This document shows, one piece after another, positions 13,648 through 18,734 of a DNA stretch of 31,743 bases. Origin of the DNA: Kofleriaceae bacterium. Lineage in GTDB: Bacteria; Myxococcota_A; Polyangia; Haliangiales; Haliangiaceae. Location of the stretch: contig DATMCI010000056.1 of NCBI GenBank assembly GCA_035558535.1, forward strand, positions 1 through 31,743, in the 5' to 3' direction. Under the pieces are notes generated by a model, which had not been told where the DNA came from, did not search any database, and saw only the letters and a program-made list of their open reading frames with translations. Position 1 is the first letter of the stretch; each line of letters begins with the position of its first letter. The position numbers and the translations under genes are program-made.

Positions 13648-13806
13648 CGGCCGGAACAATCCGCCGCCGGCCCGCGTTCAGCGCTGATGTTGCGCACCGC
13701 GACGCTCGGCCTCGCCCTCTACCTCGCGTTCACCGCGTCGGCTCGCAGCACGCTCTCGGTGATCGTCGTCTGCCCCATCGCGGCGCCGCCCGCTCGGAGC
13801 GTGCTG
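13648..13806 (+). repeat. R-family repeat copy R1 (5' region and signal-peptide coding part of the Pro-rich gene), ~85% identical over ~100 bp to 17443-17546
   Basis: gctcggcctcgccctctacctcgcgttcaccgcgtcg is identical in both copies and downstream identity is also high. The upstream part shares atccgccgc with R2/R3. Confidence 0.7.
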
Positions 13807-14700
13807 GTTGCAGCGCCGCAGCCGCAGCCTCCTCCGCCGCAACCACCACAGCCACAGCCCCCTCCGCCGCAACCACCGCAGCCACCTCCCCCACCGCCTG
13901 CGCCACCGCCCCCGGCCCCCGCTGCGCAAGATCCGTGTCCCGCGCCGTTCACGGCGGGCACGACCGGCGAGCTCCACGCGCCGCCCGGCATCGACGCGCT
14001 CACCCCGTCGCGGCACGACGTCCGCTTGCTCGCGGCCTGGAGCCGCGACGCGCTGCACGTCAGCACCGACGAGGGGCAATCGTTCCAGCAAGTACTCGAT
14101 CACCGCGGCGAGATCGGCGACGTGGCCTTCGACTGCCACGGCCGCCTGCACGCCCTCCGCGGCGACGGCGAGCTCGGCACCTACGACCCACGCACGAAGG
14201 CAGAGCGCTGGACGCGCGTGACGACGCTCTGGTCGCGCGGCGACACGATCGATCCAGGCCGGCTGGTCCCCGACGGCGCCGGTGTCGCGGTCATCGGCAA
14301 CACGCCGACGCGGCGCGATCGGCTCTGGCTCGTGCGCCGCGGCGAAGACGGACGCTGGCACGCAAAGCACCTGTTCAGCGATCGCGAGCCGGACTACTGG
14401 TCCGGAATCTACATCGGCTCGATCCGCGTGCTCCCCGGCGATCGGATCCGCCTCATGGCGACGCCGAACATGGCCGACTACGGCGTCGCCGAGTGCGGCT
14501 ACTCGAAGCTCTTCGAGGTGACGTTCGATCCCGGCGCCCGCCGGATCGCCGTCCGCGATCTCGGCGAGGGCGGCGAGCATCGGGACGACCGCCTCCAGCA
14601 GGACCCCATGGGGCGCTGGCTCCTCGTGACCGACGGCCGCGCGGCGCGGCTCACGACCGAGGAGCTCGCGGACCGGCTCGCCACGCCACCTCCCCCCTGA
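13687..14700 (+). CDS. Secreted proline-rich protein: Sec signal peptide, (PQPPPP)n linker, C-terminal globular domain of unknown function
   Basis: MLRTATLGLALYLAFTASA signal sequence. The linker PQPQPPPPQPPQPQPPPPQPPQPPPPPPAPPPPAP is encoded by an internal ~33-bp DNA duplication. GC3 bias is consistent with coding. Confidence 0.6.
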   Translation: MLRTATLGLALYLAFTASARSTLSVIVVCPIAAPPARSVLVAAPQPQPPPPQPPQPQPPPPQPPQPPPPPPAPPPPAPAAQDPCPAPFTAGTTGELHAPPGIDALTPSRHDVRLLAAWSRDALHVSTDEGQSFQQVLDHRGEIGDVAFDCHGRLHALRGDGELGTYDPRTKAERWTRVTTLWSRGDTIDPGRLVPDGAGVAVIGNTPTRRDRLWLVRRGEDGRWHAKHLFSDREPDYWSGIYIGSIRVLPGDRIRLMATPNMADYGVAECGYSKLFEVTFDPGARRIAVRDLGEGGEHRDDRLQQDPMGRWLLVTDGRAARLTTEELADRLATPPPP

Positions 14701-14724
14701 GGCCCGGGTGATACCGTCGGCGCG

Positions 14725-15696
14725 ATGCAGCGCTACGAGCTGGCGGACGGGACCTCGAACAAGTTCTGGGAGATCGGGCTCGACGGTAAGACCGTCACGG
14801 TGCGGTTCGGCCGGATCGGCACGACCGGCCAGACGCAGGTCAAGACGCACGCCTCGCCCGAGGCCGCACGCAAGGAGCGCGACAAGCTCGTGGCCGAGAA
14901 GACGAAGAAAGGCTACCGCCTCGCGGCCGCGCGTGGCCCCGCGGCCGCGAAGGCCGGCGCGAAGGCCAGCGCGAAGACCAAGGCCAAGGCCAAGCTGGTG
15001 CCGCTGCTCGCCGACGGCGCGCCGAAAGACGTCGTCGCGCTGCGCAAGCTCGCCGCGCAGGCGCGCGAAGGAGACGAGGCGATGACGCGCACGTACATCA
15101 TCACGGTGACGAAGGGCAAGCCCGGCGTCATGCGCGCTGGCGGCCCACCGATCGGCGTCACCGACAAGACGCGCCCCAAGTACGACGGCGCGTTCATGCA
15201 CCACCTCATCACGCTCGATCTCGACGCGATGCCCGAGCTGCGCAAGCAGCACAAGCCGCTCGCGCGCGCCCGCGCGCTCGCGCTGTTCATCTCCAACGCG
15301 ATGGACAACGAGGCATTCGACGACGACACCCAGGAGACCGCCGTCCTCGCGCTCGCCCCCAAGGACATCGCCCGCGGCGAGTGGACCGGCCCCGCCGTCG
15401 GCGATCCGAAGCCGCACGCACTCGCGGCGTGGCCCGTCGACGTCCCCGCGCGCGTGTTCACGTTCGATCGCTACGCCACCGACGACGATGCCGACGACAC
15501 CGACGATCCCATGGCCGAGCTCCACGACGAGCTCATGTCCGCGTGCCGCGCGGGCGGCCAGGTCATCCACTGGTCCGGCGACGATCCCGACGACCGCTGG
15601 GTGTTCCAGTTCAACGAGGATCTCGTCGAGGTCAACCTCGGCGACGCCGGCACGATGTACGTGTTCACCGATCGCGCTTACTGGGACGGACACTGA
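14725..15696 (+). CDS. WGR domain + DUF1963 (YwqG-like) domain protein
   Basis: N-terminus MQRYELADGTSNKFWEIGLDGKTVTVRFGRIGTTGQTQVK...KGY matches WGR. The C-terminal region (GGPPIG, HHLITLDL, DAGTMYVFTD) matches the DUF1963 pattern. Confidence 0.65.
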   Translation: MQRYELADGTSNKFWEIGLDGKTVTVRFGRIGTTGQTQVKTHASPEAARKERDKLVAEKTKKGYRLAAARGPAAAKAGAKASAKTKAKAKLVPLLADGAPKDVVALRKLAAQAREGDEAMTRTYIITVTKGKPGVMRAGGPPIGVTDKTRPKYDGAFMHHLITLDLDAMPELRKQHKPLARARALALFISNAMDNEAFDDDTQETAVLALAPKDIARGEWTGPAVGDPKPHALAAWPVDVPARVFTFDRYATDDDADDTDDPMAELHDELMSACRAGGQVIHWSGDDPDDRWVFQFNEDLVEVNLGDAGTMYVFTDRAYWDGH

Positions 15697-15697
15697 G

Positions 15698-17405: not shown

Positions 17406-17546
17406 CCATATCGGCGCGGATAACTCGCGATCCGCCGCTATCGCTCGGCCTCGCCCTCTACCTCGCGTTCACCGCGTCGCATCGCGGCACTGTCTCGGTG
17501 ACCGTCGTCTGCCCCGCCGCGGCGCCGCCCACCCGTCCCCTGAGGC
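17406..17546 (+). repeat. R-family repeat copy R2: hairpin module (gcggataactcgcgatccgc) plus a pseudo-copy of the Pro-rich gene signal-peptide region
   Basis: See R1 and R3. Lies in the convergent gap between the beta-helix gene and the CxxCH lipoprotein gene. Codes for nothing in context. Confidence 0.7.
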
Positions 17547-17578
17547 CGCGAGCGCCACGAGCGCGACCGGTGCTCAGC

Positions 17579-18622
17579 TCAGTTGTCCTTCGCCCCTTCG
17601 CGAATCCAGACCAGGATCTTCAGGTAGTCGGGATCGAGCGGGCTCGTGAAGGTGACGTTGGGGTGGCGATCGGGCGGGTCCTCGCGCGAGGGGTACGTCA
17701 AGAGCTGGCTCTTCTCGGGCAACGAGCGCTGGACGCGCAGCGGATCCTCCTCGATCAGCTCCTTGAAGACGTAGGCCGTAGAGCCGTCGAGCGCGAGGCC
17801 GCCGAGGTCCTTGCCGATGCCGTTACCAGAGTGACAGGCGGTGCAGCCTCGGCCGCCCTCCGCGAGGCGCGCGAAGATCGGTATGATCTGACTCGCGAAG
17901 GAGATGTTACTCGGCAGCACCGGGGCGCCGTCCGTCGCGCGGATCTGCGCGAGCGTGATGGTGCCGGCGCTGACCGGCGAGACGGCCATGTCGAGCGTGA
18001 CGGCAGCGGCCGCGGGCACGCTGAGCTTCGCCACGCCAGGGGCCACCTCGAACCACACCACCCAGCCAGAGGCAGAGGTCGCGGTCGCGCTCGGCAGTGG
18101 CTGACGGTTGTCACCGAGGAAGAACGGGCCACTCACGCTCGCGTCAAGCACGAAGGCGGCCTTGGCCACGCCGGCCTTCGGCTCGCCGCGGTCGTCGACG
18201 ACACGCGCGAGCAGGATGCCGCGCGCCGCCGACGGCGTGATCTGGAAGCCGGTGGCGAGGCTCGCCACGAACGTCTCACTGACCACCGCGGCCGTGATGT
18301 CGACGAGGTCTTCGGTCCCGACCAGCACGGCCTCGCTGAACGTCGGCCGATGCGAGGGTGCCGAGGCCAGGAGCTGGAACGCGGAGTTCTCGGGCACATC
18401 CTGGATCGTGAAGGCCGCGCCCGTGGACGTGATGGTCGGTGCCGGGGTGAGGCCGGAGGTGATGACGCTCGCGGCCCCCACGATCAGCTGCCCGCTCTCG
18501 AAGTCCACGACCGTGCCACGAACCATCCTCGTGCTGGGAGCTTCGTCGCCCGGAACATCGGGAACGTCGAACCGACACGCGGGCACCGTCAACGAAATGA
18601 GAGCACCGAGGAGCCATCGCAT
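17579..18622 (-). CDS. Lipoprotein with a C-terminal CxxCH haem-binding motif (Planctomycete-cytochrome-C/PSCyt1-like domain)
   Basis: MRWLLGALISLTVPAC signal sequence. GCTACHSGNGIGKDLGGLALDG...YVFKELIEEDPLRVQRSLPEKSQLLTYP, a typical PSCyt1 layout. Confidence 0.6.
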   Translation of the reverse strand: MRWLLGALISLTVPACRFDVPDVPGDEAPSTRMVRGTVVDFESGQLIVGAASVITSGLTPAPTITSTGAAFTIQDVPENSAFQLLASAPSHRPTFSEAVLVGTEDLVDITAAVVSETFVASLATGFQITPSAARGILLARVVDDRGEPKAGVAKAAFVLDASVSGPFFLGDNRQPLPSATATSASGWVVWFEVAPGVAKLSVPAAAAVTLDMAVSPVSAGTITLAQIRATDGAPVLPSNISFASQIIPIFARLAEGGRGCTACHSGNGIGKDLGGLALDGSTAYVFKELIEEDPLRVQRSLPEKSQLLTYPSREDPPDRHPNVTFTSPLDPDYLKILVWIREGAKDN

Positions 18623-18696
18623 GGGATCTCCCTTCGATTCGAGTCCGTGATTGTACTGCAAGCCCACGCAACCACCGCGCAAGCAGGCCGTCCCGG

Positions 18697-18734
18697 CCTA
18701 TCAGCGCGGATAACTCGCTATCCGCCGCTATCGC
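18697..18734 (+). repeat. R-family repeat copy R3 (cctatcagcgcggataactcgctatccgccgctatcgc), 38/41 identical to R2 core, in the divergent gap between the CxxCH lipoprotein gene and the MVP gene
   Basis: Direct comparison. Contains the hairpin gcggata-actcgc-tatccgc. Confidence 0.8.

Follow-up and report, generated by a model that had tools for sequence, protein, structure and literature searches.

The window analysed here is a metagenome contig of 31.7 kb and 71% G+C (ENA ERZ27228470 k141_883413), binned to a metagenome-assembled genome (MAG) of the Kofleriaceae (Myxococcota) whose locus tags begin with VNO30_. It carries, on the plus strand, a gene for an 834-aa major vault protein homologue (MVP; 18871-21375; Pfam MVP_shoulder and Vault_3), and a short repeated module, here termed B, occupies two intergenic sites near this gene, namely R3, immediately ahead of MVP, and R2, 1.3 kb away from R3. 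At a probability of roughly three in four, we read B as copied from the rtcR-rtcB intergenic control region (RtcR/sigma-54) of related Kofleriaceae, such that R3 would place this promoter on MVP, R2 would be a remnant of it, and the other short repeats nearby would be scars of rearrangement. Particular to the window are an MVP gene that has a promoter copy of its own, lacking rtcB and separated from rtcR, an orphan copy of the enhancer that has no promoter, and the RtcR-site proposal developed below. On this reading, a vault-protein gene has been cut from both rtcB and rtcR yet keeps a private, intact-looking RtcR/sigma-54 control region, which would provide comparative evidence that bacterial MVP is a member of the RNA-damage (Rtc) regulon, beyond being a neighbour of rtcB.

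In each of the closest MVP homologues (~90% aa identity), rtcR is divergent from rtcB and MVP follows rtcB. Read from the rtcR start codon, the rtcR-rtcB spacer of these relatives runs ...CCATATCG AAATG GATAAT ACG CTATC TGACC GTATCG... or near variants (three loci), and the window counterparts are CCATATCGGCGCGGATAACTCGCGATCCGCCGCTATCG in R2 and CC-TATCAGCGCGGATAACTCGCTATCCGCCGCTATCG in R3. Module B at R3 (18686-18734, plus strand), a predicted RtcR-type enhancer (upstream activating sequence, UAS), can be aligned ungapped to the rtcR-rtcB spacers of eight relatives. A MAFFT alignment of ten sequences, comprising R3, R2, and these eight Kofleriaceae spacers, requires almost no gaps; R3 is aligned throughout, whereas the match of R2 covers the initial ~48 columns. 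No variation occurs at ATC, GATAA, and the AT of (T)ATC, and ~67 nt further on a TGG...TGCA element is near-invariant. What is conserved is thus a series of half-sites in phase at 10 bp, TATC-N6-GATA-N6-TATC-N6-TATC/GATA. The half-sites of R3 are TATC (18699-18702), GATA (18709-18712), TATC (18719-18722), and TATC (18729-18732), each 10 bp from the next. The copy at R2 (B', 17395-17444, plus strand) is 90% identical to R3 and carries TATC at 17409, GATA at 17419, GATC at 17429, and TATC at 17439; it ends right past the fourth half-site, so that the enhancer copy is truncated and the -24/-12 element is missing.

The core pattern ATC-N6-GATAA-N6-ATC has two matches in the window against 0.08 expected, and in the ~930 kb of fetched loci the array is confined to rtcR-rtcB junctions, the two window sites, and one chance site. 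Sequence-invariant palindromic half-sites spaced one helical turn apart are a signature of dimeric or oligomeric DNA-binding proteins. From its position, we infer that the array is the UAS bound by the sigma-54 enhancer-binding protein RtcR, and TATC-N6-GATA-N6-TATC-N6-TATC is put forward as the candidate RtcR recognition array for this clade.

It is well established that RtcR and sigma-54 control the rtcBA genes of E. coli and Salmonella (PMC9650030, PMC7790460), and the E. coli operon has an RtcR-binding UAS together with a sigma-54 promoter (PMC9650030). In our own reading of the rtcR-rtcB spacer of E. coli K-12 (NC_000913.3 3558080-3558267), a GATA-N6-TATC motif (GATATTTCATTATC) lies near the rtcR start, upstream of the TGGCACGACGGTTGCA promoter. 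The occurrence of GATA-N6-TATC in both E. coli and Kofleriaceae suggests a conserved RtcR recognition palindrome. The Kofleriaceae system thus resembles the rtcBA systems of E. coli and Salmonella in the placement of the array beside the rtcR start (in the relatives), in the GATA-N6-TATC core, in the -24 GG/-12 GC dinucleotides at fixed spacing, and in the presence of an RtcR in the same genome. Unlike those systems, the window promoter is unlinked from rtcR and has lost rtcB, leaving MVP alone downstream; the array, predicted to bind RtcR, has four phased half-sites, and a second, promoter-less copy lies 1.3 kb off. The E. coli spacer holds a GATATC as well, and rtcA was not found among the called genes of the loci examined here.

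Downstream of the R3 array, a sigma-54-type -24/-12 element (TGGTCTCAGCCCTGCAC; 18776-18792, plus strand) begins 67 nt past the GATA half-site. It occupies the alignment columns of the TGGTC...TGCA(C) element of the relatives at the same GATA-to-TGG spacing of 67 nt, and it is the sole exact match to TGGTC-N7-TGCAC in the window. The -24 GG and -12 GC of R3 (TGGTCTCAGCCCTGCA at 18776) have the canonical spacing and line up with those of the relatives. After the -12 element, ~31 nt remain (18793-18823, plus strand) before homology to the relatives' rtcB-MVP loci restarts; their beginning resembles the relatives' rtcB leader, and the segment is interpreted as an rtcB deletion scar, consisting of the start of the rtcB 5' untranslated region and a few leftover bases at the homology break. 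The restart falls at window 18823-18839 and corresponds to the first base past the rtcB stop codon in two relatives (position 4635 in L013 and 3978 in L014), which indicates that the rtcB open reading frame has been cleanly excised. What follows (18824-18870, plus strand) is the retained rtcB-MVP spacer with the MVP ribosome-binding region (window 18824-21355 matches L013 4635-7191 at 91% in blastn). R3 is thus predicted to be a complete rtcB-type promoter that reads directly into MVP. The initial annotation had suggested, as one of two options, that an operator-promoter module was copied among R1, R2, and R3, R1 being the start region of a Pro-rich secreted protein gene further upstream. This holds in so far as R2 and R3 correspond to the rtcR-rtcB enhancer and R3 also has the sigma-54 promoter; R1, in contrast, shares with R2 coding sequence only. 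A sigma-54 element on the minus strand of R3, which could serve the divergent lipoprotein gene, was also sought by eye, and the best candidate (TGGTTGCGTGGGCTTGCA) was rejected since its spacing is 2 nt too long.

The window MVP shares 90% aa identity with the MVPs encoded after rtcB in relatives, and all relatives whose MVP is at least 84% identical and whose upstream DNA could be examined have rtcB directly 5' of MVP. Two loci with MVPs that are 82% identical (L021 and L023) likewise have no rtcB upstream of MVP, and the RtcR motif was not found there. A passage in PMC13404743 cites Burroughs and Aravind (2016) for bacterial MVP homologues sharing operons with RtcB. Unlike such rtcB-MVP RNA-repair operons, the present MAG has rtcR and rtcB on one contig and MVP with its private promoter copy on another. 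The former contig (k141_2089715, also of ENA assembly ERZ27228470) encodes an RtcR, HWO17235.1, with 85% identity to the L013 protein; the gene diverges from an rtcB that encodes a protein with 93% aa identity to L013 RtcB, and the native rtcR-rtcB spacer of this contig reads CCATATCGCCGCGGATAGTACCCTATCCAGGGCTATCGCTGGGG...TGGCGCTGTCGCTGCA. HWO17235.1 falls within the accession series of the MAG, in which the MVP is HWO18573.1 (VNO30_07345) and a paralogue of the lipoprotein discussed below is HWO26875.1 (VNO30_49435). A blastn search of this contig for MVP remnants downstream of rtcB found none, and the arrangement of rtcR and rtcB without MVP implies that the usual rtcR-rtcB-MVP unit has been split. 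MVP is probably still a member of the RtcR regulon, with RtcR predicted to act in trans on R3. R2 and R3 are each ~75% identical to the MAG's own native rtc enhancer, and their mutual identity of 90% indicates that they derive from one another. On the native contig (L098 6433-9883), rtcB is followed on the same strand by Uma2-family and PIN-domain genes as well as an unannotated gene of 295 aa.

The repeats themselves are genuine, as the initial annotation had it. R2 and R3 have in common the 31-mer GCGCGGATAACTCGCNATCCGCCGCTATCGC, which is present at 17414-17444 and 18704-18734 and nowhere else in the window, against 0.00 expected from 100 shuffles, and self-blastn of the window recovers both the R2/R3 pair (B'/B, 17395-17444 and 18686-18734, 50 nt, 90% identity) and the R1/R2 pair (A/A', 13703-13791 and 17442-17530, 89 nt, 91%). 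The positions given for the intergenic sites also stand: R2 lies between the stop codons of a beta-helix gene (17371) and a CxxCH lipoprotein gene (17579), and R3 between the starts of the lipoprotein gene (18622) and MVP (18871). The hairpin module, however, is missing from R1, which has only the signal-peptide coding segment.

It is extremely unlikely that B is a generic, dispersed palindrome of the repetitive extragenic palindromic (REP) or miniature inverted-repeat transposable element (MITE) kind, forming a hairpin in DNA or RNA and having no specific tie to the adjacent genes. Like REP elements and bacterial interspersed mosaic elements (BIMEs), B is a short G+C-rich intergenic inverted repeat of 6-7 bp with more than one copy, the two lying within 1.3 kb. 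The palindrome reported in the initial annotation is present, but its 6-7-bp stem receives little support as a folded structure: the single-strand folding z-score is average for R2 (0.07), only modest for R3 (-2.46), and 0.39 for the L013 homologue. The inner four pairs (GATA/TATC) are constant in all ten homologous sequences, the outer three G+C pairs, to which the stem in the window owes its strong look, fail to form in 3 to 8 of them, and covariation of the stem is no better than in shuffled alignments (153 of 500 shuffles reach it). The conserved part is accordingly the phased array and not the G+C stem. Unlike REP elements and BIMEs, B is not dispersed in the data at hand and is homologous to one specific promoter region, rtcR-rtcB, in eight relatives and in the same MAG. 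A search of 185,579 species-representative genomes with the hairpin-core query GCGGATAACTCGCNATCCGC (the source MAG evidently not being among them) returned six matches, in unrelated phyla and with differing flanks, which are chance occurrences; the fetched loci have no extra copies, and the 53 kb of the MAG that were read contain the two window copies of B and the native one.

A third repeat pair, absent from the initial annotation, is C'/C (11788-11834 and 21336-21382, 47 nt, 89% in self-blastn; repeat family D10). Outside the WD40 repeats described below, A/A', B'/B, and C'/C are the sole short direct-repeat pairs found in the window by self-blastn. C' (plus strand) is a pseudo-copy of the last ~13 MVP codons and the stop codon; it lies directly after an aldolase gene (11010-11747, plus strand), at the left edge of a block specific to the window (11752-13642) that contains a glyoxalase gene (11835-12284, minus strand) and three small genes (12336-13578, minus strand). 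This block is missing from L009, a JGI contig that is syntenic with the window at 85-95% nucleotide identity and is the closest relative recovered.

Comparison with L009 also clarifies the surroundings of R2. In the window, the intact Pro-rich gene (13687-14700, plus strand; orthologue at L009 12125-11094, 88%) has within R1 the authentic signal-peptide-coding segment A (13703-13796, plus strand), of which 17442-17535 is a direct repeat; as repeat family D8, this pair extends over 94 nt at 89% identity. A and A' are thus 89% identical to each other, and each is 84-86% identical to L009. The second copy, A', had been described as a ~85% identical pseudo-copy of the 5' coding end. Such a copy exists, at the slightly higher identity of 89-91%, but it comprises more than the 5' end and reaches the TGA of the Pro-rich gene. 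Window 17443-17530 corresponds to L009 12064-11983 (Pro-rich gene, 5' coding end) and window 17529-18647 to L009 11109-9976 (its 3' end, the spacer, and the lipoprotein gene); from 17529, the stub passes unbroken into the final Pro-rich codons (CCACCCGTCCCCTGA), the ancestral spacer (to 17578), and the lipoprotein gene. Since the match to the 5' end runs into the 3' end and the spacer in this way, the stub (17442-17543, plus strand) is a second Pro-rich gene copy in its ancestral position, shortened by an internal deletion of ~870 nt, in which about codons 6-36 now adjoin the final ~4 codons with the TGA (17541-17543). The junction between B' and A' (TATCGCT/CGGCC) contains a CGCT microhomology (17442-17445) found both in the native enhancer (TATCGCTGGGG) and in the Pro-rich gene at R1 (GACGCTCGG).

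These comparisons bear on the other option of the initial annotation, that the lipoprotein gene (17579-18622, minus strand) was inserted as a repeat-flanked cassette; on this view the gene would be mobile, and R2 and R3 would be the recombination sites on either side of it. The B copies are indeed direct repeats that bracket the gene, and in a more distant genome (L099) homology ends exactly at the ends of the lipoprotein gene. L009, however, has an orthologue (86% aa) placed alike beside the Pro-rich gene, the two genes being directly convergent and followed by an OmpA-like gene and then a 57-nt stub of the WGR gene 5' end, and it lacks either B module as well as the beta-helix gene and MVP. 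It is the flanks that differ: relative to L009, the segments particular to the window are those on either side of the lipoprotein gene, namely the WGR and beta-helix genes with R2, and R3 with MVP. Moreover, the decayed Pro-rich copy, in its ancestral position, separates R2 from the lipoprotein gene; integrase and transposase families were not found among the Pfam-scanned or ENA-called genes between ~9 and 31 kb of the window; and B is, by homology, a promoter-enhancer. A cassette origin is consequently very improbable, and the lipoprotein gene, judged by gene order, appears to belong to the conserved content of the locus. Homologues of the lipoprotein that are 73-81% identical (L010, L011, and L099) occur in unrelated contexts and are uninformative on the ancestral order. 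Hundreds of homologues of this protein occur in Kofleriaceae metagenomes, and the MAG encodes a 72% identical paralogue (P0019, VNO30_49435) on a further contig.

The stubs B', A', and C' all lie at synteny breakpoints, and their pair identities are similar (90%, 91%, and 89%, respectively). They are best read as rearrangement scars of the same age; the similar divergence of 89-91%, together with the closer identity of A and A' to each other than to L009, fits a single burst after the split from the L009 lineage. The order A...B'/A'...B is the product expected of a tandem duplication, and in the simplest history the block running from the Pro-rich 5' end to the enhancer would have been duplicated in this way, creating the junction B'/A' as the single novel joint. 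Copy 1 would then have lost the lipoprotein and OmpA-like genes, with a junction at 14701-14708 near a GGCC microhomology, and copy 2 would have lost the middle of the Pro-rich gene along with the OmpA-like, WGR, and beta-helix genes. C' would stem from a second event of duplication and deletion. R2, in this scheme, would be a non-promoter remnant, in which the enhancer was broken after half-site 4 and joined through the 4-nt microhomology to the deleted Pro-rich copy. The pattern matches tandem duplication with reciprocal loss in the order of the repeats, the microhomology junction, the retention of one copy per gene, and the equal divergence of the stubs; unlike the ideal case, the loci compared offer no intact intermediate, a second event is needed for C', and a moved OmpA-like gene is left over.

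A possible though doubtful alternative is that the stubs (B' with A', and C') are short templated insertions produced by serial template switching in one repair event of the type known as microhomology-mediated break-induced replication or fork stalling and template switching (MMBIR/FoSTeS). Each stub is 47-94 nt long and coincides exactly with a synteny breakpoint, B' adjoins A' at a microhomology of 4 nt, all templates are found within 10 kb, and divergence is equal for all three; template switching and duplication-loss would leave similar patterns. A' nevertheless continues into the genuine Pro-rich 3' end and the ancestral spacer, as a gene copy decayed in place would, and mechanisms of this type are sparsely documented in bacteria.

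An assembly artefact, that is, a chimeric join through short repeats, is exceedingly improbable. The window is a metagenome contig assembled with MEGAHIT and it contains repeats, but the longest exact run shared by copies is ~38 nt (by eye, in the D8 sequences), far below the final k-mer of 141 suggested by the name prefix k141_, and the repeats have not collapsed because their copies differ by ~10%. A second contig has an identical MVP and mostly the same neighbour proteins, and window 17442-18641 is matched at 100% identity by a Logan contig of a different run (SRR7967864), which ends at 17442, where R2 enters A'.

Several points weigh against the view that B is a copied rtcR-rtcB control region redistributed by duplication and loss. 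The element at 18776 reads TGGTC...CTGCA where the canonical form is TGGCAC...TTGCA, a variant common to the relatives. The rtcR contig is assigned to the same organism by MAG binning and accession order only. The identity of R2 and R3 to the native enhancer is as low as noted above, ~75%, which implies that the split is old or that the two rtc-derived pieces are of different origin. The left 10 nt of B (GGCCGTCCC..) are common to R2 and R3; the left 10-15 nt (GGCCGTCCCCACCAT) were considered as a possible remnant of the first rtcR codons, and only ACCAT aligns convincingly to the native locus. As for the history, duplication and loss rests on one syntenic outgroup, L009, and requires at least two duplications and four deletions, and neither duplication-loss nor template switching alone explains the OmpA-like gene at 3355-3825 in the window.

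R2 could still be a working orphan enhancer in one of three ways: as an auxiliary RtcR site that acts from afar, by looping, on the MVP promoter 1.36 kb downstream, as a decoy or sink that titrates RtcR and thereby tunes a split RNA-repair regulon, or as a cryptic sigma-54-like start antisense to the lipoprotein gene. Enhancer-binding proteins can act over kilobase distances. R2 retains every invariant position (ATC, GATAA, ATC) after ~10% divergence, and the stub sequence CGGCACTGTCTCGGT (17485-17499) presents a canonical -24 GGCAC at 17486, 66 nt past the R2 GATA compared with the native 67. In E. coli, extra copies of PrtcBA titrate RtcR (PMC9650030). Nevertheless, R2 lacks the -24 GG/-12 GC combination, having only GGCAC...GT at 17486, where the pseudo -12 is GT rather than the near-invariant GC, and half-site 3 is altered from TATC to GATC. 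The intact Pro-rich copy has AGCAC where the stub has GGCAC, and the spacing of the latter is probably due to chance. R2 is also conserved no better than the adjoining non-coding stub (90% versus 91%), so that there is no sign of purifying selection on it. A working R2 is therefore unlikely; if R2 did work, the copying and trimming of an RtcR enhancer would be the means by which MVP, and possibly adjacent genes, came to be wired into the RNA-damage response in this lineage. Under the preferred reading, in which B derives from the rtcR-rtcB control region and only R3 remains a promoter, R2, A', and C' would be ordinary scars that date and map a rearrangement burst in a variable, defence-gene-rich region.

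Scans for sigma-70 promoters and intrinsic terminators gave none at R1, R2, or R3, and the window had no match in Rfam at gathering thresholds or in a search for tRNAs. Among the remaining genes, a long run of 123-126-nt tandem repeats at 7035-9083 encodes WD40 blades within the gene of a caspase-nSTAND-WD40 protein (1,548 aa, 4454-9115), after which comes a gene for an LRR protein; this part of the window resembles a variable gene neighbourhood of the conflict-related kind. A response regulator-GGDEF gene (21388-22446, minus strand) follows MVP. The WGR-domain gene (14725-15696, plus strand) and the beta-helix gene (15698-17371, plus strand), both assigned by Pfam, make up the window-specific segment 14702-17394 (plus strand), which is absent from L009 save for the 57-nt WGR stub, and a metagenome scan with the beta-helix protein returned zero relatives. 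The L009 stub (9509-9565, matching window 14709-14765) is 96% identical to the window, against 85-88% for the surrounding orthologous genes, and may overlap the promoter of the OmpA-like gene.

Other MVP loci show further associations. In L034, 19 tRNA genes (1416-5948) lie directly 5' of an MVP gene (6001-8535; 75% aa identity to the window MVP), and in L048 a tRNA-Glu gene (4-76) is immediately 5' of MVP (123-2642), which suggests that in some lineages tRNA genes are linked to the vault proteins of bacteria. Large proteins with WGR and DUF4132 domains are encoded immediately 3' of MVP at two distant loci (L044 2941-5997 and L075 8551-11592; MVP at ~55% aa identity). The WGR gene of the window lies 3 kb upstream of MVP, and the linkage between MVP and WGR genes may be recurrent.

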